This document shows positions 528 to 46,014 of a DNA stretch of 46,054 nt, in pieces (position 1 is the stretch's first letter; each line of letters begins with the position of its first letter). The notes beneath the pieces were generated by a model. That model did no database searches. It saw only the letters and a list, made by a program, of their open reading frames with translations, and had not been told where the DNA came from. The position numbers and the translations under genes were made by a program. The stretch comes from Escherichia phage vB_EcoS_ACG-M12: sequence record NC_019404.1. One strand, 5' to 3'.

Positions 528-1025
528 ATGCAAAAAGTTAGTTTGGGTGAAGTTGTACGTTACATGGTCAAGAAAGCTATCAATTCTGAGAGTGGTGAGT
601 TTGTGATTCCGGTAAGCTATATAGCCGCTCAGGTTTATGGTGCTGACCCAATCGTCATTAGCAAGGAAGACATGGAAAAAGGTGGCGTGTATGACATGAC
701 AAAATTAAAGTCTTCATACGTAGCGAACACATCCAGCAGAATGCCTGAGGTCATTGAGCGAGATTTTAGAGCTAAGATATCTTTTGTTGAAGAGCTTTAT
801 GATGATTCCTATCAGGATTGCGCCAAAATCACAATGGTTAAGGGTGCGGTAAGAAAAGGTTCACGCAAGGCATCCGACCGAATGAAAGAACAAAAGATTA
901 TTGAAGGATTCAGGGAGAAATTACTATCAGTGATGCCTGACCTAAGCCACCTGGAAGGTAATGACATAATCATAGCAGTTAACGCAATCAAGGCAATGAA
1001 AGAAGTTATTAAGGAGATTAAATAA
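528..1025 (+). CDS. hypothetical early protein (165 aa)
   Basis: ATG with upstream AAAGGG; first gene of a tightly packed operon. Confidence 0.5.
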   Translation: MQKVSLGEVVRYMVKKAINSESGEFVIPVSYIAAQVYGADPIVISKEDMEKGGVYDMTKLKSSYVANTSSRMPEVIERDFRAKISFVEELYDDSYQDCAKITMVKGAVRKGSRKASDRMKEQKIIEGFREKLLSVMPDLSHLEGNDIIIAVNAIKAMKEVIKEIK

Positions 1026-1309
1026 TGATCGACTTCAACTTTGAAGTAACAAAACTGAGCCACGAAGAGATTGCTGAAATCGCAGAGAAGAATGGCAAGC
1101 CAGTTGAGTTAATCGCCGCGAATTATAACGGAATGCGCTGGGCTTTTGAGAATGGATGCGATAAGGATAAGCTAGCTGAAATCGCCAAGGAAAATATTGC
1201 TAGCAAGAAGAAGATCAAGCCGTGGTACGAGAAGCACACTCGCACTGAATGGGAGGAAGCTATGGAGTTGTGGCAGTTAATGAAGAAGCTAAACAAATTG
1301 GTAAAATAG
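1025..1309 (+). CDS. hypothetical protein (94 aa)
   Basis: ATG overlaps the upstream stop (TAATG); SD AAGGAG. Confidence 0.5.
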   Translation: MIDFNFEVTKLSHEEIAEIAEKNGKPVELIAANYNGMRWAFENGCDKDKLAEIAKENIASKKKIKPWYEKHTRTEWEEAMELWQLMKKLNKLVK

Positions 1310-1379
1310 CACTTTTTGTTAAAACTCCATGGAGGGAGTTTGGCATAATAGCTTCATTGAAATGAGAGAGGGATTCAAA
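1305..1379 (+). promoter_or_regulatory. conserved intergenic cassette (box variant AATAGCACTTTTTGTTAAA; -10-like CATAAT)
   Basis: Box starts at 1305 and spans the stop of gene 1025..1309; leader CATTGAAATGAG precedes the ATG at 1380. Confidence 0.5.
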
Positions 1380-1815: not shown

Positions 1816-1985
1816 ATCTTGACAAAGAGGTATTAAGAGATAATTTCATAGCTCACGGAATTGATGATGAAGATTTCCTAAATTGGTTCCTTGATAAAAA
1901 AGCCGATGAGCTTGGTTTGTACTGGTTCTCAACTGGTGCGACAATGTACGAGGCATGGGTGGCAGCAATGGAGACTAATAAATGA
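1812..1985 (+). CDS. hypothetical protein (57 aa)
   Basis: ATG overlapping the upstream stop; uninterrupted frame to TGA; below the track cutoff. Confidence 0.4.
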   Translation: MNLDKEVLRDNFIAHGIDDEDFLNWFLDKKADELGLYWFSTGATMYEAWVAAMETNK

Positions 1986-2116
1986 TTTACATCCATACGT
2001 ACTATACAGGCAAGTTTAATAGCGTTAAGCATGTTCACGTGCACGATAGCTACGATAGCGCAAAGGCGCAATGGCTTGTTCTAGGTGGTGACATTAATTC
2101 ATATAGAATCGCTTAA
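1982..2116 (+). CDS. hypothetical protein (44 aa)
   Basis: ATGA overlap with the previous ORF; stop TAA directly followed by the dyad box. Confidence 0.35.
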   Translation: MIYIHTYYTGKFNSVKHVHVHDSYDSAKAQWLVLGGDINSYRIA

Positions 2117-2190
2117 TAGCACGAATTGCTAAAACTGTATTGTGGTAATTTGATATAGTTACCCTATCAACAACGAGATGGAGCATAGAG
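2115..2190 (+). promoter_or_regulatory. conserved intergenic cassette (AATAGCACGAATTGCTAAA ... TATAGTTAC ... CAACAACGAG)
   Basis: Box at 2115-2133, TATAGTTAC at 2154-2162, gene ATG at 2191. Confidence 0.55.
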
Positions 2191-2625: not shown

Positions 2626-2763
2626 ATGGACAACTACGAATTACCAAGCCAGTGGGCCAAAAGGATGATGTATGAAGCTAAGGACGGCAACGAGTCTATG
2701 GCATACTTTGAGCTTATGAACCTATGGAAAGAGCGAGAAGATAAAAATAGCACGAATAGCTAA
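2626..2763 (+). CDS. hypothetical protein (45 aa) ending ...NSTNS
   Basis: ATG with SD AAGGAA; C-terminus is encoded by the dyad box itself (AAT AGC ACG AAT AGC TAA). Confidence 0.4.
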   Translation: MDNYELPSQWAKRMMYEAKDGNESMAYFELMNLWKEREDKNSTNS

Positions 2764-2823
2764 ACGCAGTCGCCACGGATGGCATATAATTACTTTACCA
2801 ACACAACGAAGAGAGATATAAGA
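2746..2823 (+). promoter_or_regulatory. conserved intergenic cassette (box inside the 3' end of gene 2626..2763; -10 TATAAT at 2785-2790)
   Basis: AATAGCACGAATAGCTAAA followed by GGCATATAATTAC and a leader before the ATG at 2824. Confidence 0.5.
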
Positions 2824-2970
2824 ATGAAAAATGTATTTGGCATCAGCTATGAAGAAGAGTTTGTTGATTGCCTTATTTACCTGAATGAGATCTACGGAGA
2901 TGAGTTTGAATGTGATGGTGATTCACTTCATGCAAAAATAGAACTTGAAACATTTGTGGAGGTTGTTTAA
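2824..2970 (+). CDS. hypothetical protein (48 aa)
   Basis: Track ORF 2779..2970 trimmed to the in-frame ATG at 2824, because 2779 lies inside the promoter -10 box. Confidence 0.4.
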   Translation: MKNVFGISYEEEFVDCLIYLNEIYGDEFECDGDSLHAKIELETFVEVV

Positions 2971-3212: not shown

Positions 3213-3486
3213 ATTGGATTGTTAAAAAAGAGCTTGCATCACTGAGTGGAAGTATATAATATTAATCACGTAGACAGGCGAGGCCACTAAGTGGCAACGG
3301 CGCACGGAGCGCAACTACTAAGTCCGTTGCTCATTAAGTAGCGTATGCGGCACACTTCCCAGTATGGGCTTTATCCCATTAGGGACTTGTAAGACCTAGA
3401 GCAAATAGGCAATCAAATCGGTCGTAACAGGCGACGCTGGATCCGTAACCAGCAATCTTCATCTAGCAAGTCTAGCTAAAGATTAT

Positions 3487-3561
3487 GCTCTGTTAGCTTA
3501 ATGGAAAAAGCCGCAGCCTTCTAAGCTGTTGATGGTGGTTCGACTCCACCACGGGGCGCCA
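3487..3561 (+). tRNA. tRNA-Arg(UCU)-like, 75 nt with encoded CCA
   Basis: Hand-folded cloverleaf: acceptor GCTCTGT/ACGGGGC (two G-U pairs), D-stem GCTT/AAGC with GG in the loop, anticodon stem GCAGC/GCTGT with loop CTTCTAA, T-arm GGTGG-TTCGACT-CCACC, discriminator G, CCA. Confidence 0.6.
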
Positions 3562-4400: not shown

Positions 4401-5969
4401 ATGTCTTTAGTATGGGAAGAGATGACCATTCAGGAAAAGATGGCTGTCAAGGCGATATCAGAGCATAGTTTTGAGGGCTTTTTAAGGTGTTGGTTTTCAA
4501 TAACACAAGGCGAGCGATACATCCCTAACTGGCATCACAAGTATCTTTGCCGAATTATCGACGAGATTATTGCCGGGGAGCGCAAGGACACTATCATCAA
4601 CATAGCGCCCGGTAGCGGTAAGACAGAGATCGCTTCAATCCATTTCCCAGCCTACTCAATGGTTAAGCTGAAGAAGGTGCGAAACCTCAATATATCTTTT
4701 GCCGACTCACTGGTAAAGCGCAACTCCAAGCGCGTGCGTGACCTTATCAAGTCACCAGAATTTCAGTCGCTTTGGCCTTGCAAGTTTGGCACGTGCAAGG
4801 ACGATGAGCTTCAGGTTCTTGATGAGAGCGGGAAGGTTAGGTTTGAGTCAATATCAAAGGCGGCGGGAGGTCAGATTACTGGCGCTCGTGGTGGCTATAT
4901 AACCGAAACATATAGCGGGGCCGTCTTATTAGATGATTTTGACAAGCCCGCAGATATGCTATCAGCAGTCTACCGAGCAAATAACCATGTAATGCTAAAA
5001 AACACAATTCGCTCCCGTCGTGCGAGTTCTGTAAAGGGAAAGGCAACGCCAATCATTTCGATACAGCAGCGATTGCACGTTAATGACTCAACCTGGTTCA
5101 TGATGGAAGGTGGGATGGGTATCGAATTCGATTTGATTAAGATACCAGCGTTGGTAACTGAGGATTACCTAGACACACTACCTGAATGGATTAAAGAACA
5201 GTTTGAAGAGGATGTCCTTAGTAGTGAATACATAGAGCGCGATGGAGTAAGGTATTACAGCTACTTCCCTAAAAAGGAGTCAGTCAATGACTTGGTTGCG
5301 ATGTGGGATAGTGACCCTTACACCTTCCTTAGTCAGTATCAACAAGAACCAGTAGCTCTAGGTGGCAACCTTATTAACGTAGATTGGTTCCAGCGCCTTA
5401 GCGACACGTTCAGACCTCCCGCTAAGTACGATTATAGATTTATAACTTGCGATACAGCTATGACTACAAAAAGTTATAGTGACTTCTCTGTCCTTCAATT
5501 GTGGGGTTATAAAGATGCTAAGATTTACCTTATTGACCAGCGCAGGGGGAAATGGGAAGCGCCCGAGTTAGAGGCAGAGTTAATCGATTTCGAGAAGAAA
5601 TCAAGGGCAACCAGTCAATCGGATGGTATCCTCCGAAAGATTATCATCGAGAAGAAAGCATCTGGAATCGGACTCATTCAATCAGCAAGTCGAGTCATGA
5701 GAACGCCAGTGGAACCTTATGTTCCTGATAATGACAAGTTAACAAGGGTGATGAGTGCGCTGCCACAGATTAAGGCTGGTAACGTAGTTCTTCCTGAGTC
5801 TGCGCCGTGGTTAAGCGGATTGCTTACTGAGATTGCGGCATTTACCGCTGACGACAGCCACAATCACGACGACCAAATTGATACCATGACAATGGCTATC
5901 AACCTGGTTCTGAACATTGCGGATGACCCTAAGGCGAGACTAATGCGCATAGCGGGAATAATAAAATAG
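4401..5969 (+). CDS. terminase large subunit (522 aa)
   Basis: Walker A IAPGSGKTEIAS in the N-terminal ATPase; size and position; acidic C-terminal nuclease-like region. Confidence 0.85.
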   Translation: MSLVWEEMTIQEKMAVKAISEHSFEGFLRCWFSITQGERYIPNWHHKYLCRIIDEIIAGERKDTIINIAPGSGKTEIASIHFPAYSMVKLKKVRNLNISFADSLVKRNSKRVRDLIKSPEFQSLWPCKFGTCKDDELQVLDESGKVRFESISKAAGGQITGARGGYITETYSGAVLLDDFDKPADMLSAVYRANNHVMLKNTIRSRRASSVKGKATPIISIQQRLHVNDSTWFMMEGGMGIEFDLIKIPALVTEDYLDTLPEWIKEQFEEDVLSSEYIERDGVRYYSYFPKKESVNDLVAMWDSDPYTFLSQYQQEPVALGGNLINVDWFQRLSDTFRPPAKYDYRFITCDTAMTTKSYSDFSVLQLWGYKDAKIYLIDQRRGKWEAPELEAELIDFEKKSRATSQSDGILRKIIIEKKASGIGLIQSASRVMRTPVEPYVPDNDKLTRVMSALPQIKAGNVVLPESAPWLSGLLTEIAAFTADDSHNHDDQIDTMTMAINLVLNIADDPKARLMRIAGIIK

Positions 5970-6038
5970 CACTAATTGCTAAACATTAATGCCATGGATG
6001 GTGTATAGTTACCTCACACAAGCGAAGGGAGATAAAAG
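5965..6038 (+). promoter_or_regulatory. conserved intergenic cassette (box overlaps the terL stop TAG; TATAGTTAC at 6004-6012)
   Basis: AATAGCACTAATTGCTAAA ... GTGTATAGTTACC ... AGCGAAGGGAG. Confidence 0.55.
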
Positions 6039-13121: not shown

Positions 13122-13124
13122 TTG

Positions 13125-13200
13125 ATAGCACTTTTTGTTAAAGACTAAAAATCAAAATGCTGTATAGTTCAATCATCGAAACGAAATGAGAAATTAAGAA
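13125..13200 (+). promoter_or_regulatory. conserved intergenic cassette (GATAGCACTTTTTGTTAAA ... TGTATAGTT ... CATCGAAACGAAATGAG)
   Basis: Precedes gene 13201. Confidence 0.5.
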
Positions 13201-14173: not shown

Positions 14174-17152
14174 ATGGCAACAAATGAATTAGCCGGAATC
14201 ACACTAGCCGTAGACGTCTCGCAGGTAGACAGGGGAACGCAATCCCTACAAAAGTTCAGACAGGCCAACCAACAGGCTGCATCTGGGATTAGTGAGTTCG
14301 TCAATGCTGAGCAGGTTGCTAAAAACCAGGCTAGAGATACCGCTCGCGCACTTGCTGAGCAACAGGCATCTTTAGCTAAATTGCAAACAGCTATTGATCC
14401 AACCGCTGCAAAGTTCCGCAAGCTGCAAGAGGCTGCTGTAGGTCTGGATAAGGCATTCGCGGCTGGAGTAGTTCCTGATGAGGAGTTTTTCCGATTAGGT
14501 GAAGCCCTTGAAACGCAGAACGCAAAACTTGCTCGTTCACGTGCGGCACTAACTGAGGAGGGTAGAGCGGCAGCTCAGGCCGCAAAAGATAAAGCAAAGG
14601 CAAAGGCTGAAGCTGATAGGTTCATTGCGTCACTTGAGCGCCAGGCTCAAGCGGCAACATTGACGCGCGAAGAGTATCTAAAGTTACAGGCTGCTCAGCT
14701 TGGCGTAAGTTCTCAGGCGGCACCTATTATTGACAGAATCGCCGATGCATCACAGAAGGCAAACACCCAGCTAATTGCTCAGAGTAAGGCTTTTCAGAAA
14801 TCAGGATTAAGCGCGGGTCAATACAAGAATGCAATTTCTCAGCTGCCAGCGCAGATTACTGATATTGGCACGTCGCTTGCTGGCGGCATTCCGATTTGGC
14901 TTATTGCAATTCAGCAAGGTGGGCAGATCAAGGATGCATTTGGCGGTATTGGTAACACATTTAGATTCGCGCTTGCAGCCTTAAACCCATTCAATGTAGC
15001 TGTTGGTGTTTTGGGTGGGGCGCTTGTAGCTCTTGGTGTTGGTGCGGCTCAGGCTGAAAGTGAATTCAGAGCATTAAACTCCGCAATTGCTTTCTCCAAC
15101 AACTCTACAATCGCATCAATTTCGCAGGTTAGAGAGTTGGTTAGCTCTGTTTCTGATGCAACAGGTGCCACCAGAGGACTTGTGACTAGCATCGCAACAA
15201 GCCTTATTGAGCAAGGGAACCTTACGCTGACGCAGATTGACAAGATTACTAAATCGACCGCAAGATGGGCGCAGTTGACAGGTAAGGATGCGAAGGAGAT
15301 TACTGGTTACTATAACCAGATTGCAAGCGACCCAATCCAGGGTTTAGTTGATTTGGATAAGCGCTTTAACTTCCTCACACAGGGGCAGTTGACGACAATC
15401 GAAAACCTGAGAAAGACAAAGGGAGAAGTTGAGGCCGTTACTGCTGCGATTGATATTTTCAGCAAGTCTCAGGAAGCCAACCTTAACGACATAGCTGCGC
15501 AGTTAACTCCGCTTGAGCTAGCCTGGAATGATTTCAGAAAGTACATCTCTGATATATGGGATGCAATTAGCCGTAGAACGGTTGGGGCTCTAAACCTGTT
15601 TGTTGACGTAATCGCCGGAACAATTGAGCAGATCAGGGTCTTCATTAATCAGGGTGATGCGCTGATTGGTGAATTCGTAATTAGCGCAACTCAGGCATTG
15701 CAGAACATTCCTGGTCTTGATGGCGTTGGTGATGATGTTATCAAGGGGCAGCAGAAGATTATCGATGCCGCCAAGAAGCAAAACCTTGAGCTAGAGAAGT
15801 CTATCAAGGAGCGCGATGCCAGAATCAGAGAGGGAGAGCTTGGTTACGTTACTCGCAGAGAAAATCAGAATACCAATGAGCAGTCAGGTACTGATGAGGA
15901 ATTTGCAAAAAGGAAGAAGGCGCTTCAGGATGAGCTTGATGCGATCAAGAAGAACAGGAAAGAAGAAAATAGTAGGGTTAAGGAGCAAAGAGATTTAACA
16001 ATTGGTTATGAATATGGCGTTCTGGCGCTTCAGGCTCAACTCAAGGCGCTTCAGGAAAACAGGGATATTGGCGCAGTAATAAGCAATGAGCGCAAGCAGT
16101 ATCTTCAGGAGGAGGCCAAATTCAGGATTCTTGAGCAGAGACAACTTGATGGCTCAATTACCAAAGAGCAAGCAAGACTTCTCATTGAAAAGGATAAAGT
16201 TCTTGAGTTAGCCAGACAGAAGGCTGAGCTAGGTGATCAGATTGTTTTGCAGGAGCGAGCTAATAAGTTAGCTGAAGATAACCGCAAGAAGATTCTTCAG
16301 ATTAACAATGAGGCAAGTAACATTGATTTGGGTGCTGGTTTATCATCTCGCGAGCAGCAGAGAGCCAAAGAGATTCAGGCTCTTCAATCCAATCAGGTTA
16401 ATGCTGGTGGTTCTGTTGATGATGTTGATTTTCAGCAATTACTGGAAGCAAGAAAGGAATACTACAAGCAGGAGGATAATCTTAGGTCAGACTGGCAATC
16501 CGGTGTAACATCCACTCTCGCCGACTTGACAGAGAAGTACACTGACTACAACCAGATTGCTAAGGACTTAACTGTTGCGGCATTCGATGGAATTACAGAA
16601 CAGATTACAAACCTTGTAACCACTGGTGAGACTAATTTCAGAGATTTCACAGCAAGCATCCTCAAAATGATTGCGAAGATTGCAACTCAGTTACTTTTGG
16701 TTAAGGCCATCGAATCAACATTGACTAGTTTTGGTGGTGGGGGAGGTAACGTGTTTGGCTCACTTGCATCTGCCATAGGTTTTGCTGGTGGCGGCTATAC
16801 TGGTGATGGTGGGAAGTATCAGCCAGCAGGAACGGTGCACCGTGGTGAGTTTGTATTCACAAAAGAAGCGACAAGCAGAATTGGCGTGAAAAACCTTTAC
16901 GCGCTGATGAAGGGTTATGCGAATGGCGGCGCTGTTGGTGGTCCTTCCGGTTATGCGAATGGTGGTTTGGTTTCTGGTGGAACTGATGTTAATGTTAGCG
17001 GCATCACTGTTAACGTAAATTCCGGTTTGGGTGGCGACTCAGAGCAAGCAAAAGCATTGCAGAGTGGCGTCAAGGCTATCGTAGCGGAAGAAATTGCTCA
17101 GTCTTTCCAGCAGGGTGGCAGGGCGTATGCCTATTTGAGAGGTTTTAACTAA
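14174..17152 (+). CDS. tail tape measure protein (992 aa)
   Basis: Largest tail gene after the chaperones; long Ala/Gln/Glu-rich coiled coil; Gly-rich C-terminal region. Confidence 0.8.
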   Translation: MATNELAGITLAVDVSQVDRGTQSLQKFRQANQQAASGISEFVNAEQVAKNQARDTARALAEQQASLAKLQTAIDPTAAKFRKLQEAAVGLDKAFAAGVVPDEEFFRLGEALETQNAKLARSRAALTEEGRAAAQAAKDKAKAKAEADRFIASLERQAQAATLTREEYLKLQAAQLGVSSQAAPIIDRIADASQKANTQLIAQSKAFQKSGLSAGQYKNAISQLPAQITDIGTSLAGGIPIWLIAIQQGGQIKDAFGGIGNTFRFALAALNPFNVAVGVLGGALVALGVGAAQAESEFRALNSAIAFSNNSTIASISQVRELVSSVSDATGATRGLVTSIATSLIEQGNLTLTQIDKITKSTARWAQLTGKDAKEITGYYNQIASDPIQGLVDLDKRFNFLTQGQLTTIENLRKTKGEVEAVTAAIDIFSKSQEANLNDIAAQLTPLELAWNDFRKYISDIWDAISRRTVGALNLFVDVIAGTIEQIRVFINQGDALIGEFVISATQALQNIPGLDGVGDDVIKGQQKIIDAAKKQNLELEKSIKERDARIREGELGYVTRRENQNTNEQSGTDEEFAKRKKALQDELDAIKKNRKEENSRVKEQRDLTIGYEYGVLALQAQLKALQENRDIGAVISNERKQYLQEEAKFRILEQRQLDGSITKEQARLLIEKDKVLELARQKAELGDQIVLQERANKLAEDNRKKILQINNEASNIDLGAGLSSREQQRAKEIQALQSNQVNAGGSVDDVDFQQLLEARKEYYKQEDNLRSDWQSGVTSTLADLTEKYTDYNQIAKDLTVAAFDGITEQITNLVTTGETNFRDFTASILKMIAKIATQLLLVKAIESTLTSFGGGGGNVFGSLASAIGFAGGGYTGDGGKYQPAGTVHRGEFVFTKEATSRIGVKNLYALMKGYANGGAVGGPSGYANGGLVSGGTDVNVSGITVNVNSGLGGDSEQAKALQSGVKAIVAEEIAQSFQQGGRAYAYLRGFN

Positions 17153-17223
17153 TAGCACTAAATGGTAAAGCCAAAAGGATTTGGCTTGCTATAATCAACT
17201 CATTAAAAGCATGAGGTGATAAA
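17151..17223 (+). promoter_or_regulatory. conserved intergenic cassette (AATAGCACTAAATGGTAAA ... TTGGCTTGCTATAATC)
   Basis: Box directly after the tape-measure stop; TGCTATAAT extended -10-like box at 17187-17195. Confidence 0.5.
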
Positions 17224-17721
17224 ATGAACTGGAATGATATTTTTGAGTATAGAGATGGGGTTCTTTATTGGAAGATTTCAACAAGCAACAAATCAAGAAA
17301 AAAGATTGGTGATGTTGCGGGTAATCAAATGAATGATGGATACATAATGGTTCAGGCATTTGGCAAAAGAATGCTTGCTCATAGGGTTGTTTGGGAAATG
17401 CATAATGGCAGAATAACTAATGGCATGCATATAGACCATTTAAACCACATAAGGAATGACAACAGGATAGAAAACCTAAGACTGGTGTCAAGAACAGAAA
17501 ACAACAGGAATAAATCACTGTCAAAAGTAAACAAAACAGGTGTTTCAGGAGTTAGATTAAAAGATGGGCTATTTGAGGTTTCGATAGGTGGAGAAAAAAA
17601 CAAGACTTACATAGGAAGGTTCTACACACTGGATGAGGCTAGAGCAGCAAGGAAATGCGCAGAATTTGAACTTAATTACCACAATAATCATGGGGATTGC
17701 AATGGCGATAGACACATTTAA
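17224..17721 (+). CDS. HNH homing endonuclease with AP2-like DNA-binding domain (165 aa)
   Basis: HRVVWEMHNG...IDHLNHIRNDNRIENLRL HNH motif; paralogue of gene 39194; inserted between the tape measure and the M-like gene. Confidence 0.75.
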   Translation: MNWNDIFEYRDGVLYWKISTSNKSRKKIGDVAGNQMNDGYIMVQAFGKRMLAHRVVWEMHNGRITNGMHIDHLNHIRNDNRIENLRLVSRTENNRNKSLSKVNKTGVSGVRLKDGLFEVSIGGEKNKTYIGRFYTLDEARAARKCAEFELNYHNNHGDCNGDRHI

Positions 17722-18089: not shown

Positions 18090-18845
18090 ATGTTAAGTCC
18101 AAAGTTTGAGAATCAGTTGCAAAGCCTTTTCCCAGGCGAGATTGTGACACTAATTCAGGTTGACGGGACCTCATTCGGAAGTCTCGTTTACAACTTCCAT
18201 AATGAGAACATATCTTACACACCTGAAGAAATCATGCTGGCCCAAATGAATGGCGATCCACTACCAGAGAAAACCATCACCTTCCGCGGCGAAGAGTATG
18301 GCCCAAGACCATTTGGTATCTCTGGTATCAATATGACTTCTGACGGCAAGGCTAACAAGGTCACGTTAACGGTATCAAACGTGGACCAGCGCATTAGCGC
18401 ATTGATTCGCACATATAACGGACTTGTTAAGGCAAAGGTTACTATCTGGATCACCACGCGCGATAACATCAATGAAGACGGAAGCATTGCTGACGGGGAC
18501 TATCGCAGATTTGTTTACTTCATTGAGCGACCAAAGCAAGTTGATTACAAAACCGCATCATTTGAGCTAAGCAGCCCGATGGATATGGACGGAATTTATA
18601 TTCCTGCACGTCTTGTTCAGTCCGTTTGCTATTGGTCGTCAAGGGGGTGGTATCGTAGCGGTAATGGTTGCGACTATGCTGGCAATCGTTATTTTGACAA
18701 GGATGACAATCCAGTGTCAGACCCTTCACTTGACTTCTGCGCCGGAACGGTAAATAGCTGTAAGATTAGGTTTGGTGAGAATAATCAGCTTTCATTTGGT
18801 GGGTGCGCAGCAGCGAGCCTTCAAGCTAAAGCTAATCAGAGTTAA
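18090..18845 (+). CDS. minor tail protein, lambda L-like (251 aa)
   Basis: C-terminal four-Cys cluster (CYWSS...C...C...C) as in the L family; position after the M-like gene. Confidence 0.6.
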   Translation: MLSPKFENQLQSLFPGEIVTLIQVDGTSFGSLVYNFHNENISYTPEEIMLAQMNGDPLPEKTITFRGEEYGPRPFGISGINMTSDGKANKVTLTVSNVDQRISALIRTYNGLVKAKVTIWITTRDNINEDGSIADGDYRRFVYFIERPKQVDYKTASFELSSPMDMDGIYIPARLVQSVCYWSSRGWYRSGNGCDYAGNRYFDKDDNPVSDPSLDFCAGTVNSCKIRFGENNQLSFGGCAAASLQAKANQS

Positions 18846-18911
18846 ATAGCACGAATTGCTAAAGACGATTTAAAAAGATGGGGTATAGTTACCCAATCGA
18901 AACGAGAGGAG
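18845..18911 (+). promoter_or_regulatory. conserved intergenic cassette (AATAGCACGAATTGCTAAA ... GGTATAGTTACC ... CAATCGAAACGAGAGGAG)
   Basis: Box at 18845-18863, TATAGTTAC at 18884-18892. Confidence 0.55.
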
Positions 18912-25356: not shown

Positions 25357-25436
25357 GTTCCTTAGAATGTGTGTTTCGTTTTGATGGAGTAATCATATCT
25401 TAACTGTTAGGTTTGTCTTTAGCTATTCGTGCTATT
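25357..25436 (-). promoter_or_regulatory. conserved intergenic cassette, minus orientation
   Basis: Reverse complement reads AATAGCACGAATAGCTAAA ... leader CCATCAAAACGAAAC before the lipoprotein gene. Confidence 0.45.
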
Positions 25437-25679
25437 CAACCATCTGTTATATTTATCCCTCTCCTTGATTGCCTTTTCAAGTGACTTGAATCTTAAAAGT
25501 AGCGGCATACAGTCAACACCCATAATTAAGGATTCGTCGCAGCTATTTGCGCCAGTCAGCCAAAGAGAGAAGTATTGTTGATCGAGGCCGTAGTTCCTGT
25601 CTTTATTGACCCTAACGCTAACAACTTTAAATTTTAAACCAGCCAACTTAACCTTATCTATAAATTCTGACTTATTCAT
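25419..25679 (-). CDS. hypothetical protein (86 aa) ending ...NSTNS
   Basis: ATG 8 nt after AAGGAG; C-terminus encoded by the dyad box. Confidence 0.45.
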   Translation of the reverse strand: MNKSEFIDKVKLAGLKFKVVSVRVNKDRNYGLDQQYFSLWLTGANSCDESLIMGVDCMPLLLRFKSLEKAIKERDKYNRWLNSTNS

Positions 25680-25753
25680 CTTGTTGCTCCTTTTTAGTTT
25701 ACCTGGAAATGGTACATCACCCATGAGATTTGTCTTTAGCAATTAGTGCTATT
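25680..25753 (-). promoter_or_regulatory. conserved intergenic cassette, minus orientation
   Basis: Reverse complement of 25735-25753 reads AATAGCACTAATTGCTAAA; precedes gene 25419..25679. Confidence 0.45.
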
Positions 25754-26621: not shown

Positions 26622-27583
26622 CATTCAAAGTCTACACGCGAGAAGAGTTAAGCAACGAAGAGTACCACTCTGAAACTGATCACATCTCTGGCAGTTCACT
26701 AGTTGAGATTATCCAGGGTTCACCAGCAAAGTGGAAGTTCAAGCAGCTCAACAGTTGTAGCAAGGCTCTTAAGTTTGGCACATTAAGCCACTGCATGATT
26801 CTAGAACAAGATGTGTTCGATAAAGAATACCTTCGAGCAACAGACCTTGAAGCTATTGAGGGGTTAATTACAAGTCAGACCGCATTATCGGCAGCACTGA
26901 AAAAAGTTGGTGTAGCTGGCACGTCAGGGAAGGGCTATAGCGAGCTTGTAGAGATGATGTATCGCTCTGGTGAGGATTGGCCTATTAAATGGTTAATTGA
27001 GCAGCAGGAGAGCGCTCAGGCTCTTGTAGAGGGTAAGGAACTGGTAAGCGCAGCGGACTACGACAAAGTGGTAGCGATGCGCGAGGTTCTCTGCAACATT
27101 CCGGCATATGATAAGATTGTTAACAGCGAAACGGCGCAGAAAGAGTTATCAATCTTTGGTGAGATTCTCGGTGTAGGAGTGAAGATTCGAATTGATCACG
27201 TAGATGTAATTGATGGTGTTGTGATGATCAACGATTACAAGACGACGGCAGATGCAGGCCCTGAAGGATTCGGCAAATCGGCCTTCTCTCACGGATACCT
27301 GGCAAAAATGTCACTTCAGCGCGATCTGTTTGTTAAGGCATTTAACGAAAAGAGAAAGGTCGTAGTTGGCCTTCTGGCGCAGGAGAAGGTGGAACCATAC
27401 CTTCCTATGAGGTACATATTGACTGACGAGCAACTTCGCATTGGAAGGCTACAGTATATTGAAGCGCTAGCTACTTACAAGAAGTGCAAAGAGCTTGATA
27501 TTTGGCCTGGTTATTCAAATGGAATTACAGAGCAAGAACTGATGATTCCTGATTGGGCAATTAAGCAGTATAAAGAGATCTAA
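26618..27583 (+). CDS. PD-(D/E)XK recombination exonuclease (321 aa)
   Basis: IDHVDV...MINDYKTT catalytic D...D/E-x-K arrangement; directly upstream of Erf and SSB. Confidence 0.6.
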   Translation: MTFKVYTREELSNEEYHSETDHISGSSLVEIIQGSPAKWKFKQLNSCSKALKFGTLSHCMILEQDVFDKEYLRATDLEAIEGLITSQTALSAALKKVGVAGTSGKGYSELVEMMYRSGEDWPIKWLIEQQESAQALVEGKELVSAADYDKVVAMREVLCNIPAYDKIVNSETAQKELSIFGEILGVGVKIRIDHVDVIDGVVMINDYKTTADAGPEGFGKSAFSHGYLAKMSLQRDLFVKAFNEKRKVVVGLLAQEKVEPYLPMRYILTDEQLRIGRLQYIEALATYKKCKELDIWPGYSNGITEQELMIPDWAIKQYKEI

Positions 27584-27655
27584 ATAGCACGAATTGCTAA
27601 AAAAAATGGGATATCTGAGGTATAGTTATCCCATCAACAGCGAACGAGGTTAAAG
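27583..27655 (+). promoter_or_regulatory. conserved intergenic cassette (AATAGCACGAATTGCTAAA ... GGTATAGTTATCC ... CATCAACAGCGAACGAGG)
   Basis: Box at 27583-27601; TATAGTTA at 27621-27628. Confidence 0.55.
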
Positions 27656-32096: not shown

Positions 32097-32115
32097 AATA
32101 GCACGAATTGCTAAA
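32097..32115. promoter_or_regulatory. isolated dyad box AATAGCACGAATTGCTAAA at the 5' end of the tail fibre gene, without a downstream -10 or leader
   Basis: Only copy not followed by a TATAGTTAC box and leader; lies between a TACAAT-like element and the SD of the minus-strand fibre gene. Confidence 0.4.
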
Positions 32116-33143: not shown

Positions 33144-33650
33144 TCAAATCGTGCTTTTTTTCTCTGCTTCTCTCTTTTTCTTATTCTCTTCTTTAATCTT
33201 ACGCCATGATCTGGCAGGCGGCTTTGTTGCTAACTCCTCTTTCTTAACAACTCTAAGCATTTCTCGACGGTCACAACGCAATGTTAAAGGCTTACCATTA
33301 CTATCAAATCGAAGGTCTGGACGAATGAAGCTAGCTCGATAACCCTCGCCTGTACGCTTGTACTTACCGTGTAATTTCTGCGCACCTTTAGCTGAAATCA
33401 TTCCGCGTTTACACCATTCAGAAACTACTGCATGTGTCACATTAGCGGCTTTTGCTAGCTTCGATTTACCACCATAAAAATCAAGTACAATCTCAAGTCG
33501 GGCGCGTAAACTAGCTCTCACCTCATCCTTCAAAGTGTAGTAGCCATAAGGTCGACTACGTTCTTTCTTGTCTTCACCGCGATGAGTTCCGTTATTACCA
33601 TTTAATGTGCGCTTGTCTACTTCACCAGTTGATGCCGCAATTCTCGTCAT
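33144..33650 (-). CDS. HTH DNA-binding protein with basic C-terminal tail (168 aa)
   Basis: LAKAANVTHAVVSEWCKRGMISAKGAQKL helix-turn-helix-like segment; Lys/Glu-rich tail; divergent from the helicase gene. Confidence 0.45.
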   Translation of the reverse strand: MTRIAASTGEVDKRTLNGNNGTHRGEDKKERSRPYGYYTLKDEVRASLRARLEIVLDFYGGKSKLAKAANVTHAVVSEWCKRGMISAKGAQKLHGKYKRTGEGYRASFIRPDLRFDSNGKPLTLRCDRREMLRVVKKEELATKPPARSWRKIKEENKKKREAEKKSTI

Positions 33651-33661
33651 TATCAATCTCC

Positions 33662-33750
33662 AATAGCACTTTTTGTTAAAAGTCGTTTTGATTTAGTGTT
33701 AGTATTGTACTCAACAAAACGCCACAACACAAATTAATAGGGCTTAACAA
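33662..33750 (+). promoter_or_regulatory. conserved intergenic cassette (AATAGCACTTTTTGTTAAA variant) in a divergent promoter region
   Basis: Box at 33662-33680; TAGTAT-like -10; precedes the helicase ATG at 33751. Confidence 0.45.
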
Positions 33751-35746: not shown

Positions 35747-36166
35747 ATGAAGATTACAGATAAAGAAGATTACATTGAGTTTTACCCGGGTGCTGTAAAA
35801 TCATGTCCAAAGGAGGATGACGAACAAATCTTTTGCTCTGATTGGGTTAAGTACCATTATCCGCAGATTGTTTACTGGCACACGATTAATGAAAATAAGA
35901 AGACCATAGGGCAAGCAAGAAAAGACCAGGCGAAAGGACTCCTTAAGGGCGTATCAGACTGCTTATTCCTGATACCTGAATCAATGCGAGGCAAATACCC
36001 TTTTGGAGCCATAGAGCTAAAGAGGGCAGGAAAAACTCAAGCAAGCCCTGTCAGCGATGAACAAAAGGTTTTCTTAAAAAGCGTAAGGGAATCAGGCGGT
36101 TTCTCTGCTGTAGCCTACGGTCGCGAAGGTTTTCTTGCAGCATTCAAAGAAATGATTTCAAAATAG
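35747..36166 (+). CDS. VRR-NUC domain nuclease (139 aa)
   Basis: D...E-x-K arrangement (SDCLF...GAIELKRAGKTQ...Q) characteristic of VRR-NUC as recalled; coupled to the helicase. Confidence 0.5.
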   Translation: MKITDKEDYIEFYPGAVKSCPKEDDEQIFCSDWVKYHYPQIVYWHTINENKKTIGQARKDQAKGLLKGVSDCLFLIPESMRGKYPFGAIELKRAGKTQASPVSDEQKVFLKSVRESGGFSAVAYGREGFLAAFKEMISK

Positions 36167-36242
36167 CACGAATTGCTAAAGAAGATTTTAAAGGATGGGG
36201 TATAGTTACTCCATCGAAACGAAACGCAGAGAGAGAAACAAA
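36162..36242 (+). promoter_or_regulatory. conserved intergenic cassette (AATAGCACGAATTGCTAAA ... GGTATAGTTACTCCATCGAAACGAAACG)
   Basis: Box overlaps the stop TAG of the VRR-NUC gene; TATAGTTAC at 36201-36209. Confidence 0.55.
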
Positions 36243-36819: not shown

Positions 36820-37016
36820 TTAATAATAGACCGTTCGTTGTTACGTTTAAGCCAAGAAACAACACCCCACGGATGGATATTGATGAGTACCTTCTGAAAC
36901 GAGGAAATAGCTATTTTGTTCTTGAAATTTCAGCAGACTCAGATAGGTATATAGTAAAAAACGATGCTGGTATTGTTGTTAGTGTTTCAAAATTGGATGT
37001 GGAGATTGTGAGATGA
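36816..37016 (+). CDS. hypothetical small protein (66 aa)
   Basis: ATGA overlap. Confidence 0.4.
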   Translation: MINNRPFVVTFKPRNNTPRMDIDEYLLKRGNSYFVLEISADSDRYIVKNDAGIVVSVSKLDVEIVR

Positions 37017-37207
37017 TTAATGCAACTTGTGTAAAAGCAAATGGTTCCTTTACTCTACTTGAAGATTACGAAATTATCTTTAATTCAGATGGTGCAATAA
37101 CAGTATTAAGCGATGATGGATGCTATTGGTTCGTTAGTTATCAAGGTGATGGGTATTACGGGTGTAGAGATTCTAATGGAAAAGAAGTTAGCTTCTTAGT
37201 AGAATAG
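37013..37207 (+). CDS. hypothetical small protein (64 aa) with YQGDGYY motif
   Basis: Shares SYQGDGYY with gene 40864 (AEYQGDGYY). Confidence 0.4.
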   Translation: MINATCVKANGSFTLLEDYEIIFNSDGAITVLSDDGCYWFVSYQGDGYYGCRDSNGKEVSFLVE

Positions 37208-37277
37208 CATTTTTTGTTAAAACTAAAATCCACGGATGGATTATATTAAACACATCAACAGCGCAGAGGATTGAGAT
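37203..37277 (+). promoter_or_regulatory. conserved intergenic cassette (AATAGCATTTTTTGTTAAA variant)
   Basis: Box overlaps the stop TAG of gene 37013; GGATTATATTAAACACATCAACAGCGCAGAGG. Confidence 0.45.
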
Positions 37278-37985: not shown

Positions 37986-39122
37986 ATGGCAACTGCAAAA
38001 ATTACCAACGAACAGCTTCTTGAAGAGCTGATTAACGGCATGACCAACAAGGCCATTGCAGAGAAGTACGGAATGAACATTCGCAATGTTGAGTTGCGTC
38101 GCAGTAAATTGGCGAAGCAGGGTGAATGGCATGGAAACCCAGGCATCAAGAAGCTAGTTCCTGACGGTTATTTGGTCAAAGGCACATCAACGATGATTGA
38201 TGCCGAAGGTAACGAAAAGCTGCGCTGGGTTAAAACATCCGTAGATAATGAGCGCCTTGAGGTTTTAATGGAGCAAGCCCGAGAAGCATTCTGCTCTGAT
38301 TTGCCAAAGGCTATTCCATCTGAATCACCGAATGTTAACTTTGATGACAACACGCTTGCGATGTATCCAGTCTTTGACTTGCACATTGGAGCAATGGCTC
38401 ACAAACATGAGTGTGGCGAAAACTACGACACAGAAACAGCAGAGAAGGTTATGAATGGTTTCTTTGACTACGCTGTAGATAAGGCTCCGAACTCAAAGAA
38501 TGCCGTGCTTGTTCTTGGTGGTGATTTCTTGCATTACGATTCATTAGAGGCAAAAACACCAGCGTCAGGCCATATCTTAGATTCTGACAGCCGTTACGCA
38601 AAGATTGTTTATGTCGCAATCCGTTCAGTGCGACGTGCAATTTCTAGAATGATGGAAAAGCATCAAGTTATTGATATTAAAGTAATAAGTGGAAACCACG
38701 ACGAGGCAGGGATGGTTTGGCTGCGCGCTGCGCTTGCTGCGTTTTATGAAGATGAACCGCGCGTAAATGTTGATGTTAGCCCAGCCGCAATGATGATGAC
38801 CAGCTTTGGAACTACGCTTATTGGATACACCCACGGGCATCAAATGCGAAAAGCAGATACGCGACTAACTGTTATGGCAACCGATTTTCGTAAGTTATTT
38901 GGTCAAAGTGAGTATGTTTACACACATAGTGGCCACTGGCATTCGCAGAAGATTACAGAAACAAACTTGGGTATTGATGAGGTTCATGGGCAGCTTGGAA
39001 GCCCTGACGCGTACTCAGCAAATGGCGGATGGCGCTCTCAACGTCAAGCGGCGGTTATTGTCTACCATAAAGAATTCGGTGAAGTTGGCCGCTTCATTTG
39101 TCGCCCTAAAATGTTTGGATAA
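37986..39122 (+). CDS. metallophosphoesterase (calcineurin-like) with N-terminal HTH-like domain (378 aa)
   Basis: DLHIG (DxH), GGDFLHYD (GDxxD), GNHDE (GNHD/E), later HGH and GHWH motifs; N-terminal NKAIAEKYGMNIRNVELRR helix-turn-helix-like. Confidence 0.6.
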   Translation: MATAKITNEQLLEELINGMTNKAIAEKYGMNIRNVELRRSKLAKQGEWHGNPGIKKLVPDGYLVKGTSTMIDAEGNEKLRWVKTSVDNERLEVLMEQAREAFCSDLPKAIPSESPNVNFDDNTLAMYPVFDLHIGAMAHKHECGENYDTETAEKVMNGFFDYAVDKAPNSKNAVLVLGGDFLHYDSLEAKTPASGHILDSDSRYAKIVYVAIRSVRRAISRMMEKHQVIDIKVISGNHDEAGMVWLRAALAAFYEDEPRVNVDVSPAAMMMTSFGTTLIGYTHGHQMRKADTRLTVMATDFRKLFGQSEYVYTHSGHWHSQKITETNLGIDEVHGQLGSPDAYSANGGWRSQRQAAVIVYHKEFGEVGRFICRPKMFG

Positions 39123-39193
39123 TAGCACATTTTGTTAAAACAGTAGCCGCGAAAGCGGCTATTATTGTTTTATACAAACGGGAGGGGATTTAA
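39121..39193 (+). promoter_or_regulatory. conserved intergenic cassette (AATAGCACATTTTGTTAAA variant) containing hairpin TAGCCGC-gaaa-GCGGCTA
   Basis: Precedes the HNH gene at 39194. Confidence 0.45.
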
Positions 39194-39688
39194 ATGGATT
39201 GGAATGATTTTCTTGAGTATAGAGATGGCAGGCTTTACTGGACTGACCCGCATTCAACAAAACTCAAGCCAGGTGATGAGGCTGGCAGCAGGCACCATAT
39301 GGGTTATTGGTACATTCGCAGATATGACAAAACAATGTCAAGGCACAGAATCGTATGGGAGATGCACAACGGACCAATACCAGAAGGCATGGAGATAGAT
39401 CATATAAATCACGCCCCTGGTGATGACAGGATTGAAAACCTAAGAATGGTCACAAGAAGGCAAAACAATCAAAACAAGAAATTAGATGGAAGAAATACAA
39501 GCGGACACGTCGGGGTCAGCTTGAACAAGAAGACAAACAAATGGAGAGCAATGATAGGCATAAAGGGAGAGGACGGAAAGAGGAAAACTCTATACGTTTA
39601 CTATGGTGATTCTTTCGATGACGCAGTGTCAGCAAGAAAGAGAGCTGAGGTTGAGTACTCATTTCACGAAAATCACGGAAGAAGCTAG
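39194..39688 (+). CDS. HNH homing endonuclease with AP2-like domain (164 aa), paralogue of gene 17224
   Basis: MDWNDFLEYRDGRLYW ... HRIVWEMHNG ... IDHINH ... RIENLR; clear paralogy with the 17224 protein. Confidence 0.75.
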   Translation: MDWNDFLEYRDGRLYWTDPHSTKLKPGDEAGSRHHMGYWYIRRYDKTMSRHRIVWEMHNGPIPEGMEIDHINHAPGDDRIENLRMVTRRQNNQNKKLDGRNTSGHVGVSLNKKTNKWRAMIGIKGEDGKRKTLYVYYGDSFDDAVSARKRAEVEYSFHENHGRS

Positions 39689-40240: not shown

Positions 40241-40795
40241 ATGACTAAATTATTTATCCTTAATGGCCCCGCTGGAGTTGGTAAGGATACTATAGCGGAT
40301 ATCATGGTTGAGACTGGTGTCGCCAAAGAAAAGGTATCATTCAAGTCACCAATGTTTAACGTTGCTAGAGGTATTCTTTCAATAGATGAATTCGATTGGT
40401 TTATTGAAAACTACAACAATCGCGACGAGAAGGAGAAACATCAGAAAATTCTAGGTGGAAAAAGCATTCGAGAGTTCATGATCTGGATTAGCGAGTCTGT
40501 AATGAAGCCAGTCTTTGGTGATGATGTTTTTGGTAAAAGGCTCGCCCAGTCACTTAGTGATGGTTGCTACATTTGCGCTGACGGTGGATTTGCTAGCGAG
40601 ATTAAGCCACTGATCGACGCTGGTGTTGAGGTCACGTTAATCAGATTGCATAGGGCGGGGCACACATTTGATGGCGATAGTCGCTCATACATTCACGGGG
40701 TGTGCGCAAGAGAAATTGATGTTCGTGTTGTTGGTGGTGATATTGATGGAACATCAGCATTGGTAAGGCACGTAATAAATAGCACTAATTGCTAA
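40241..40795 (+). CDS. P-loop kinase, dNMP-kinase-like (184 aa) ending ...NSTNC
   Basis: KLFILNGPAGVGKDTIADIM resembles the T4 gp1 dNMP kinase N-terminus (from memory); ATG directly after the HAD gene stop; C-terminus encoded by the dyad box. Confidence 0.5.
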   Translation: MTKLFILNGPAGVGKDTIADIMVETGVAKEKVSFKSPMFNVARGILSIDEFDWFIENYNNRDEKEKHQKILGGKSIREFMIWISESVMKPVFGDDVFGKRLAQSLSDGCYICADGGFASEIKPLIDAGVEVTLIRLHRAGHTFDGDSRSYIHGVCAREIDVRVVGGDIDGTSALVRHVINSTNC

Positions 40796-40863
40796 AGATA
40801 ATAATAAAAACTGAGTTATCATTAACACATCGAAACGAGATGAAACAAACGAGGAAACACAAG
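40778..40863 (+). promoter_or_regulatory. conserved intergenic cassette (AATAGCACTAATTGCTAAA ... CACATCGAAACGAG)
   Basis: Box forms the last codons of the kinase gene; leader precedes the ATG at 40864. Confidence 0.5.
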
Positions 40864-44173: not shown

Positions 44174-44244
44174 CTTAATGCTCCATCTCGTTAATGTGCG
44201 GGTATTATATAACACCCGCTCAGTATGTCTTTATCTTTTAGTGC

Positions 44245-44598
44245 TTATTTGTATTGCGCCTCGAATTTGTAAGTCTCGCAGAGCGTCTTGAAGCCAACTT
44301 CCTCATCTCGGTAAAGCTGCCAGGCATTGCCTTCTTTGTCATAGATGTAACCAGCATTTTGGCCCAGGCCAGCGTGCATGTTTACCTGATATCTCTTTCC
44401 TTCCGCGAACACTTTAGAGACGCCACTCTTATGGTTAACCTTTGTGCAATACAGAGTCTTGGTCTTGATGTATTTGCCGCGCTCTGTAAGGTTCTTCCAT
44501 TTTCCATTAACCTTGATTTGCTCTACACCATCTTTAACGCGAGCCTTGAACAAATCGTTATCGCTTGAAACCCAGTGTTTTGTAATCGTAGTAGTCAT
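44245..44598 (-). CDS. hypothetical protein (117 aa)
   Basis: In-frame ATG after GAGAGGG; track start is further upstream. Confidence 0.4.
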   Translation of the reverse strand: MTTTITKHWVSSDNDLFKARVKDGVEQIKVNGKWKNLTERGKYIKTKTLYCTKVNHKSGVSKVFAEGKRYQVNMHAGLGQNAGYIYDKEGNAWQLYRDEEVGFKTLCETYKFEAQYK

Positions 44599-44761: not shown

Positions 44762-44832
44762 TTCTCATCTCCCGTCTCGATGGAAAGATAATGCCGTATC
44801 TCACATAAATGCTTTTAGCAATTCGTGCTATT
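44762..44832 (-). promoter_or_regulatory. conserved intergenic cassette, minus orientation
   Basis: Reverse complement of 44814-44832 reads AATAGCACGAATTGCTAAAAGC; leader CCATCGAGACGGGAG. Confidence 0.45.
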
Positions 44833-44975
44833 GCGCGCCTTTTGTATCGCCTTAAGCATAATCTCATGACTCTCAAGCAAGTCCTCGCGGAACCAGTCGC
44901 CGCAAGGCCAGCCCTTTCCGCTGTATGCGCTGATGACCTCGAGATCGAAATAATTTATCTCAGATGGTAGTAGCA

Positions 44976-45218
44976 TCATTTCACCTCATCAAAAGTTGCA
45001 ATCCCAGGAATAAACATTCCAACCTTCCAGCCTGCAATGGCAATCCATCCAGAATCGTGCTTGTGCGGTCGATCAGCGCCTTTAATTAACCACTCGTTCG
45101 GGATTGTCTTGCCGTTAATGATTAGAGGCTCAGCGTCGTATACAGAGCCTTTTACGAATGGTGTTAAGGCTTTCTTGTCAGTGCTATTGATAACGTTAGT
45201 GCAGATTATTTTAGTCAT
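44976..45218 (-). CDS. hypothetical protein (80 aa)
   Basis: ATG start; overlap-coupled. Confidence 0.4.
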   Translation of the reverse strand: MTKIICTNVINSTDKKALTPFVKGSVYDAEPLIINGKTIPNEWLIKGADRPHKHDSGWIAIAGWKVGMFIPGIATFDEVK

Positions 45219-45995: not shown

Positions 45996-46014
45996 TTTAG
46001 CAAAAAGTGCTATT
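45996..46014 (-). promoter_or_regulatory. dyad box, minus orientation (reverse complement AATAGCACTTTTTGCTAAA), at the head of the terminal minus operon
   Basis: Followed in the minus direction by about 240 nt of GC-rich structured leader before the first small gene. Confidence 0.4.

Follow-up and report, generated by a model that had tools for sequence, protein, structure and literature searches.

The window analysed here is the whole 46,054-nucleotide (nt) stretch of Escherichia phage vB_EcoS_ACG-M12 (NC_019404.1), in which a 19-nt box, AATAGCAC-N4-TG(C/T)TAAA, occurs in 21 copies when mismatches are allowed. Sixteen of the 78 genes end between positions -1 and +18 of a box, ten with TAA, five with TAG and one with TGA, and five of the nine TAG stops in the genome are the TAG of a box. 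We consider it probable, at roughly three chances in four, that the standard promoter of this phage has the box as its upstream element and that the C-terminal NSTN(S/C) tails shared by several of its proteins are a by-product of genes packed against the box. Under this reading, upstream genes would extend right up to the box because the genome has almost no spacer DNA, the sequence of the box would set how each of them ends according to frame, and one-nucleotide insertions or deletions (indels) just 5′ of the box would shift orthologues among the three outcomes. Throughout, the initial A of the box is position 1, and the position given for an upstream gene end is that of the last base of its stop codon.

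The three frames through the box have different outcomes. Frame c meets the box TAG at +3 to +5, and the final sense codon there must be NAA, so that the protein usually ends in Lys, Glu or Gln. The TAG of AATAGCAC is the stop of terL, of the VRR-NUC gene and of the gene at 37013..37207, as a first-pass annotation of this DNA had stated, and the same is true of 1025..1309. Frame b is open through the box, and genes in this frame bring their own TAA, which ends on box base 1. Frame a reads AAT AGC ACN AAT TGC TAA and yields NSTNC or NSTNS directly before the stop. It had been claimed that three unrelated genes share this box-encoded ending. All three (2626..2763, 40241..40795 and the minus-strand open reading frame (ORF) 25419..25679/25724) do so, but the count is too low: a fourth gene, 44815..44976(-), carries the tail as well, and the number becomes five if the KSTI end of the regulator gene discussed below is included. 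The four tail proteins fall into four distinct PHROG families (1312, 139, 4423 and 4548). Box 13124 is the sole box whose same-strand upstream gene stops earlier, and at four boxes no gene lies upstream on the same strand.

Same-strand junctions without a box mostly measure -4 to +3 nt, which bears out the earlier suggestion of very tight packing, and those with a box cluster at 68-76 nt, close to the size of the promoter cassette. In compact phages it is commonplace for a promoter to overlap the end of the gene before it, and in itself the finding is modest. In T7 and phiX174, too, where spare space is lacking, a promoter can lie in the 3′ end of the upstream gene and the end of a protein can be shaped by the signal. 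The difference is that here one element supplies the stops for about one-fifth of the genes and places identical tails on unrelated proteins.

Gene ends and tails in related phages

A 6-kb piece of the window matches Escherichia virus ECH1 (MN164484.2) over its full length at 98% identity; ECH1 is classified as Drexlerviridae, Braunvirinae, Guelphvirus, and the window belongs to a T1-like phage. Relatives were covered by a pooled set of about 45 genomes, assembled from an IMG/VR scan with the exact 19-mer (120 loci, on contigs of 39-53 kb bar one 12-kb fragment) together with T1, EC3a and IME253. It holds 508 unique copies of the box with a -10 hexamer, and the ORFs upstream of them were clustered into 149 families. 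These ORFs end at +5 in 219 copies, at +18 in 61, at +1 in 48, at +2 in 34, at +11 in 11 and at +4 in seven, and 109 of the 149 families have a member that ends at -2 to +19. Weighted by family, the TAG frame (c) accounts for 70 cases, the open frame (b) for 22 and the tail frame (a) for 16 (chi-square p = 3e-11). The RefSeq annotation of T1, which is independent of the ORF calling used for the pooled set, places a stop that overlaps the box at 14 of the 17 boxes with a same-strand upstream gene (compared by hand). The stop-in-box pattern is general within the phage family. The further proposal of the first-pass annotation, that the box constrains the 3′ coding sequence, is upheld by the NAA codon before the box TAG: 190 of the 211 pooled genes with this stop have Lys, Glu or Gln as their last residue.

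Orthologues switch between the frames. The VRR-NUC family ends at +5 in 15 relatives and at +18 (...SNSTNC) in three, and the dNMP-kinase family in related phages ends at +5 in 14 cases, at +18 in three and at +2 and +1 in one each. Alignment of 3′ ends within families places one-nucleotide indels just before the box that shift the outcome: the ending ...GDMHEVER is exchanged for ...GDMHEVGDSTFC (...MHEVGDSTFC) and the ending ...RVIKVIE for ...RIIKVIENSTKS (...KVIENSTKS). The tails track the local box variant exactly, as NSTNC, NSTNS, NSTFC, NSIFS, YSTKS, DSTFC and others. Eleven distinct orthologues of gene 2626 in T1-like phages end in ...EREKK or similar, have no tail and are free of a box within 60 nt; in IME253 a different gene (gp29) stands between the orthologue and the same conserved promoter, and gp29 ends in the box with YSTKS. 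One orthologue of the 25419 gene ends with GSTNC in the GGTAGCAC variant of the box, and another has neither box nor tail. The orthologues that share 65% identity with 44815..44976 terminate on the TAG of the box, with ...AKAAKK as their last residues. In these comparisons the tail is not kept regardless of the DNA element; it is gained and lost by one-nucleotide indels and follows the box variants. The frame switching, the variant-tracking tails and the tail-free orthologues thus answer the question of conservation that the first-pass annotation had raised: the NSTN(S/C) tails are conserved as DNA only, and not as protein.

It is accordingly very improbable that the tail is a selected protein motif, such as a tag at the C-terminus that serves in degradation, localisation or interaction. 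Its presence in four unrelated proteins and its retention in close orthologues of 44815..44976 would suit such a motif. So would an excess of Cys-to-Ser changes in the tail frame, which suggests that the tail is translated and under some selection: the Cys codon TGC is replaced by the Ser codon AGC (T13A) in 10 of 41 tail-frame boxes versus 11 of 417 others (Fisher p = 2e-6), or in 6 of 25 versus 9 of 139 when counted by family (p = 0.013), and both NSTNS boxes of the window carry the variant. Because the copies are related, this association is only suggestive. A selected motif is hard to reconcile with the indel-driven gain and loss among orthologues, with the 11 tail-free orthologues of gene 2626 and with a tail sequence dictated exactly by the local box variant. 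The tail-adding frame is also the least used (16 of 109 family-weighted cases), and PHROG profile matches in two of the four genes end 4-6 residues short of the C-terminus.

Another sign that constraint may run from the reading frame to the box is seen in T1 at 46085-46159(-), where the annotated HNH gene ST8 reads through the box, the TAA having become AAA, and continues across the whole promoter of the next gene, which adds 24 residues (NSTFCKTRVPLTVYHSRRQLRSLL); relatives of ST8 stop at the box.

Stops in the box could also arise mainly through the gain or exchange of cassettes and not by gradual deletion, with the conserved promoter cassette of ~80 bp as a recombination or insertion boundary, so that each module would end at the start of the following box; this explanation we regard as possible but doubtful. 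The HNH cassette behind the tape-measure gene opens with its own box, and homology to the cassette-free EC3a breaks right after AACTAAT; gp29 of IME253 lies between the gene 2626 orthologue and the conserved promoter and ends with YSTKS in the box; and relatives differ in gene content yet their promoters stay alignable. The frame switches in collinear orthologues, however, are one-nucleotide indels and not module swaps, and general compaction is sufficient since the box-free junctions are equally tight. Cassette exchange and packing are compatible and not mutually exclusive. Two HNH endonuclease genes of the window each lie in their own box-promoter cassette (17151-17721 and 39121-39688). The first cassette is absent from EC3a, and its insertion boundary is the tape-measure stop codon.

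Predicted promoter geometry and a possible role in RNA

The octamer AATAGCAC occurs 18 times in the window against 1.8 expected, and 18 copies were reached in none of 100 shuffles. Every copy of the box is followed on its 3′ side by a spacer, a hexamer (TATAGT, TATAAT or CATAAT-like), a stretch like CCATCGAAACGAGA, a Shine-Dalgarno sequence and an ATG. In the window the spacer from box to hexamer is 20 nt (19 or 21 nt in two or three cases), and the distance from box start to start codon has a median of 75 nt, with 17 of 19 at 70-86 nt. Among the pooled copies the spacing from box to -10 is exactly 20 nt in 459 of 508 (90%). The pooled logo has near-invariant G5, C6, A7, C8 and G14 (96-100% conserved) and a dyad of 5 bp, TAGCA-N5-TGCTA, whose half-sites are separated by 10 bp. 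The T-type box lacks the dyad, and the ends of the box are asymmetric (AA...AAA, and C8 versus T12). Of the pooled copies, 80% have G at -14, 43% have T at -15 and 40% have the pair TG at -15/-14, and a CA dinucleotide lies 6-7 nt past the hexamer, where the start site is expected. The logo has no TTGACA-like hexamer 17 bp from the -10, and the bases at that place read AAAACn. Given the missing canonical -35 and the fixed distance to the predicted -10, we infer that these promoters lack a -35 and that the box occupies approximately -51 to -33 in them, with the dyad centre near -42. Apart from the box promoters, no strong canonical sigma-70 promoter was found in the intergenic regions of the window.

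Some 12 nt after the predicted start (CA TCGAAAC.AA) are conserved behind most boxes, across promoters and in about 45 genomes, for example at 18896-18912, 36213-36229 and 39741-39757, and this conservation exceeds what a Shine-Dalgarno sequence needs.

The UP element, the sigma-54 promoter and the canonical sigma-70 promoter were considered and rejected for their spacing and for the invariant bases of the box. UP elements are A/T-rich, lie at -40 to -60, are read by the alpha C-terminal domain of RNA polymerase and have no invariant G or C, whereas G5, C6, A7, C8 and G14 of the box are conserved at 96-100%. The sigma-54 consensus is TGGCAC-N5-TTGCW, with the start 12 nt after the GC; the box, as TAGCAC-N3-TTGCT, has AG for GG and a spacing that is 2 nt short, and the element downstream of it is a -10 of sigma-70 type. 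A canonical sigma-70 promoter would have TTGACA 16-18 bp 5′ of the -10, where AAAACn stands at 17 bp, and TTGCTA is 22 bp away.

The first-pass annotation had offered a function of the box at the RNA 3′ end as an alternative to packing. A box that acts in RNA, as terminator, processing site or stabiliser, and thereby marks or creates the 3′ termini of upstream transcripts is in our judgement improbable. Such a role would account for the stop codons in the box. Relative to the upstream gene the box always has the sense orientation, read-through transcripts would include it, and its 5-bp dyad is able to form a small hairpin. This hairpin folds at -3 to -5 kcal/mol, no better than shuffled sequences (z -0.2 to -2.0; six boxes folded), a U-run is absent, and T-type boxes have no dyad at all. 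Where true terminators are present they precede the box (e.g. at 13100), and some boxes have no upstream gene (25753-, 33662+ and 46014-). The rigid 20-nt spacing to the -10 (459 of 508) fits a DNA promoter element, as a fixed distance of this kind is a property at the DNA level. An intrinsic terminator in particular was rejected, since the stable G+C-rich hairpin and the U-run are both lacking. The weak fold, the absent U-run and the DNA-level spacing thus speak against the RNA 3′-end function.

Candidate readers of the box

Our candidate for a box-binding protein is a phage regulator of 168 amino acids (aa) with a Cro/C1-type helix-turn-helix (HTH) core (33144..33650, minus strand). Its matches to the Pfam Cro/CI HTH families are sub-threshold, and its match to phrog_2856 is strong. 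The regulator is present in 827 phage records, and the 24 matches listed at 51% identity or more are to phages of 44-52 kb with T1-like names or hosts. A sequence comparison with solved structures gave no match at E-values up to 1. An AlphaFold (AF2) model built from seven sequences has a predicted local distance difference test score (pLDDT) above 90 over residues 35-140, and it best resembles Cro proteins and restriction-modification (R-M) controller proteins, with a target template-modelling (TM) score of ~0.7. A homologue from Pseudoalteromonas phage H40/1 was tried for co-variation and discarded as uninformative, being a 79-aa Cro-like protein from an unrelated genome.

The regulator gene has a putative sigma-70-like promoter without a box, TTGnnn-N17-TAcAAT/TATAAT (window 33651-33750), which in T1 reads TTGAAT-N17-TATAAT (36432-36524). 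An inverted box lies in the predicted leader of the gene, 11-12 nt 5′ of its ATG, and is at the same time the box of the divergent helicase promoter. Promoter and leader box are arranged alike in T1, IME253 and EC3a, and the position of the helicase box in the regulator leader suggests self-regulation. A second inverted box, 32097-32115, lies on the minus strand 4 nt past TGcTACAAT (an extended -10) and 22 nt before the tail-fibre ATG (32074), directly after the primase terminator. This layout, too, is kept in T1, IME253 and EC3a, and the box is placed as an operator would be across the predicted start site of a box-less promoter. Taken together, the regulator and the inverted boxes suggest a free-standing protein that binds DNA, acts as an activator at -42 and could be a repressor at other sites.

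Boxes inverted relative to plus-strand structural genes are also present in T1 itself, at 15069-15087(-) and 18833-18851(-). One of these falls between the two hexamers of a TTGACG-N16-TATTAT promoter that precedes the major head gene, and the window equivalent of the second (18833-18851) is the normally oriented box 13124.

In the mechanism that we propose, the Cro/C1-type protein would be made from its box-less sigma-70-type promoter and would bind the box. Bound at -42 it would activate the host RNA polymerase in the style of a class II activator, and through boxes inverted over or after start sites it could repress its own gene, via the leader, and the tail-fibre gene. Only tentatively do we extend this to a single-regulator programme common to all T1-like phages, of which the box would be the operator: the Cro-like protein, from the only box-less sigma-70 promoter, would activate ~20 promoters without a -35 from -42 and repress itself and the tail-fibre gene via inverted boxes, while the box would have become the default stop for about one-fifth of the genes, protein ends and operator sequence each constraining the other. 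The two-way constraint is suggested by the Cys-to-Ser variants in tail-frame boxes together with the stop-destroying variants where a gene reads through.

Several observations weigh against the reading that we prefer, some of them because they would suit a reader supplied by the host. Nearly all recognisable promoters are boxed, including likely early ones at both genome ends, which makes it possible that a host factor or the polymerase reads the box. Set against yAGhAwATTwTdCTr, the consensus published for E. coli Lrp, the box fits at 11-12 of 15 positions, in the arms only, which is a lead and not a result. The presumed recognition helix of the regulator is variable (HAVVSEW, NQTVQGW, PQAVEEW) whereas the box core is invariant, and the most conserved part of the protein is an N-terminal motif, DKRxxNGNNGTxRxxDKKxR (residues 12-31), that is modelled as disordered; this motif may contact DNA or RNA polymerase. 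The Foldseek E-values of the regulator model are weak, with 0.02 the best. The -10 and the start site are themselves predicted from consensus. The pooled copies share a phylogeny and their counts are not independent, and because the ORF caller takes the longest ORF, the class that ends upstream of the box is overestimated. Terminators were rejected as the cause of this upstream-ending class: a clear terminator was found in only 7 of 89 pooled cases, and most are artefacts of long-ORF calling (e.g. T1 ST69/ST70).

That the box is read by the host, either by a DNA-binding protein such as Lrp or by RNA polymerase through an unusual UP-like element or -35 substitute, is a realistic possibility, which we nevertheless place below even odds. 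In addition to the boxed promoters and the variable recognition helix, the arms TAGCA...TGCTA match those of the Lrp consensus, and a UP-like enhancer was proposed by the authors of the re-annotation of phage TLS (PMC11447400). The box does not fit the Lrp consensus at its centre (wATTw), however, invariant G5, C6, A7, C8 and G14 are unlike A/T-rich UP elements, and TTGCTA at 22 bp from the -10 is beyond the reach of sigma region 4. The boxes that lie inverted over start sites point to a free-standing protein that binds operators, and the conserved Cro-like regulator with its box-less promoter and the box in its own leader fits self-regulation.

Known systems and other features of the window

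Our literature search on the motif and on T1 transcription starts found only the TLS paper. This re-annotation (Phage 2024, PMC11447400) describes a 21-nt direct repeat, aaATAGCACnnnTTGnTAAAA, in 18 intergenic copies oriented along transcription and ~76 nt from start codons, with conservation strongest at ATAGCAC and TAAAA. The same repeat was reported in T1, Rtp and Rogue1, and its function was listed as an open question (PMC11447400). The box agrees with the TLS repeat in sequence, orientation, distance (76 versus a median of 75 nt), copy number (~18-21) and the G/T/A central subtypes. All 21 copies in the window fit aaATAGCACnnnTTGnTAAAA, one of them (32097) inverted relative to the neighbouring genes, and T1 itself has ~25 copies. 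The TLS paper differs in treating the repeats as intergenic and setting aside copies inside genes, and it does not describe the fixed 20-nt spacing to the -10, the missing -35, the encoded stops and tails or the inverted copies. Its authors proposed an analogy with the stoperators of mycobacteriophage L5 (PMC11447400). Both are sets of many short oriented intergenic repeats, which in L5 are bound by one phage protein. Stoperators block elongation in a temperate phage and stand at no set distance from a -10; the present phage is virulent, and in 90% of the pooled copies the box lies exactly 20 nt from a -10 hexamer.

The predicted geometry can also be compared with that of class II activator-dependent promoters, such as those of CRP and FNR (-41.5), of lambda cI at PRM (-42) and of R-M C-proteins at C-boxes. 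A dyad near -42 would likewise cover the place of the -35, and the modelled Cro/C1-type HTH fold of the candidate binder is like that of cI, Cro and the C-proteins. A site near -41.5 with a usable -10 fits class II geometry if the predicted -10 and start are right. The differences are that the ends of the box are asymmetric, that one type of site serves ~20 promoters of a virulent phage, and that activation, binding and the start site are predictions here. In T4 middle promoters the MotA box, near -30, replaces the -35, and AsiA appropriates sigma. The box resembles this system in that a phage element would replace the -35 before a -10 of sigma-70 type genome-wide, and loosely in its sequence (TTGCTAAA here versus TGCTT in T4), but the MotA box is centred near -30 and not -42. 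No homologue of MotA or AsiA turned up in the window, although no search aimed at them was made.

For annotation, these results mean that a promoter element determines many of the gene ends, last residues and short tails of T1-like phages, which are not to be taken for protein motifs. The open question of the TLS authors receives a predicted architecture that can be tested (dyad at -42, 20 nt to the -10, G at -14 and no -35), and a named candidate binder with a box in its own leader provides a lead on the repeat of the T1 family. The box is also a clean natural case in which to measure the mutual constraint of a regulatory site and an overlapping reading frame. The individual boxes and the genes that end in them are listed in Table 1.

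Table 1. Boxes, tail-bearing genes and the candidate regulator in the window, with the position in the box at which the upstream stop codon ends.
Feature	Position	Strand	Upstream stop end	Remarks
Box	1305..1323	+	+5, box TAG	TAG 1307-1309 stops gene 1025..1309
Box	2115..2133	+	+2, TAA using box A1 and A2	Gene 1982..2116; AA of its TAA are box positions 1-2
Gene (45 aa), phrog_1312	2626..2763	+		Ends ...EDKNSTNS
Box AATAGCACGAATAGCTAAA	2746..2764	+	+18, TAA after tail	Encodes NSTNS and stop of gene 2626..2763; AAT AGC ACG AAT AGC TAA at 2746-2763
Predicted -10 TATAAT of box 2746 promoter	2785..2790			Downstream gene 2824..2970
Box	5965..5983	+	+5, box TAG	TAG 5967-5969 is the stop of terL (4401..5969)
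Box, variant GATAGCAC...	13124..13142	+		After the intrinsic terminator behind the major tail gene
Box	17151..17169	+	+2, TAA using box A1 and A2	5′ edge of HNH-endonuclease cassette; tape-measure TAA 17150-17152 overlaps box positions 1-2
Box	18845..18863	+	+1, TAA using box A1	TAA of gene 18090..18845 ends on box position 1; box stop-free in that frame
Gene, phrog_4423	25419..25724	-		Ends ...RWLNSTNS
Box	25418..25436	-	+18, TAA after tail	Gene 25419..25724 ends within
Box	25735..25753	-		First promoter of minus-strand gene block; no upstream gene
Box	27583..27601	+	+1, TAA using box A1	TAA of exonuclease VIII gene ends on box position 1
Box, inverted relative to flanking minus-strand genes	32097..32115	+		Before tail-fibre gene
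Box, variant AAAAGCACGATTTGATAAA	33140..33158	-	+15, TGA in variant box	Primase promoter; regulator gene ends within (KSTI, TGA at +13..+15)
Candidate box-binding regulator, phrog_2856	33144..33650	-		168 aa; 'transcriptional regulator', Cro/C1-type HTH core
Box	33662..33680	+		Helicase promoter; on the other strand 11 nt from regulator ATG, in the predicted regulator leader
Box	36162..36180	+	+5, box TAG	Stop of VRR-NUC gene (35747..36166)
Box, variant AATAGCAT...	37203..37221	+	+5, box TAG	Stop of gene 37013..37207
Box	39121..39139	+	+2, TAA using box A1 and A2	TAA of gene 37986..39122 overlaps box positions 1-2; precedes HNH gene
Box, variant ...TGCCTAA	39690..39708	+	-1, TAG just 5′ of box	HNH gene 39194..39688 stops 1 nt 5′
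Gene, dNMP-kinase-like, phrog_139	40241..40795	+		Ends ...HVINSTNC
Box	40778..40796	+	+18, TAA after tail	Encodes NSTNC and stop of gene 40241..40795
Box, variant ATAAGCAC...	44230..44248	-	+4, TAA in variant	TAA at +2..+4 stops gene 44245..44598 in an otherwise open frame
Gene, phrog_4548	44815..44976	-		Ends ...KARNSTNC
Box	44814..44832	-	+18, TAA after tail	Gene 44815..44976 ends within
Box	45996..46014	-		Right end of window; first minus-strand promoter there

Two further sequences in the window resemble the box or a part of it. At 3462-3480 a box-like TCTAGCAAGTCTAGCTAAA stands directly 5′ of a tRNA-Arg gene (3487-3561), with no -10 at the usual spacing, and could be a chance or degenerate copy. 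A lone AATAGCAC within gene 44976..45218, at 45181-45188(-), lacks both the rest of the box and a -10 and is probably a chance occurrence or a relic. The promoter layout also bears on one annotated start: that of the 43-aa ORF at 1329-1460 falls in the spacer of the 1305 promoter, and the in-frame ATG at 1380, which is the start predicted by the layout, would leave a product of only 26 aa.

All 78 coding sequences annotated in phage vB_EcoS_SCS31 have an intact ORF in the window. At 46,054 bp each, the window, ECH1 and SCS31 are equal in length, yet they are not identical, with 3-9% of aligned positions differing, which leaves the conclusions unaffected. The differences between SCS31 and the window are unevenly spread, with none in 1-2000 and past 40001, and those between ECH1 and the window cluster at 12-18 kb. 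The equal lengths and the uneven differences suggest mosaic relatives or reference-guided assemblies.

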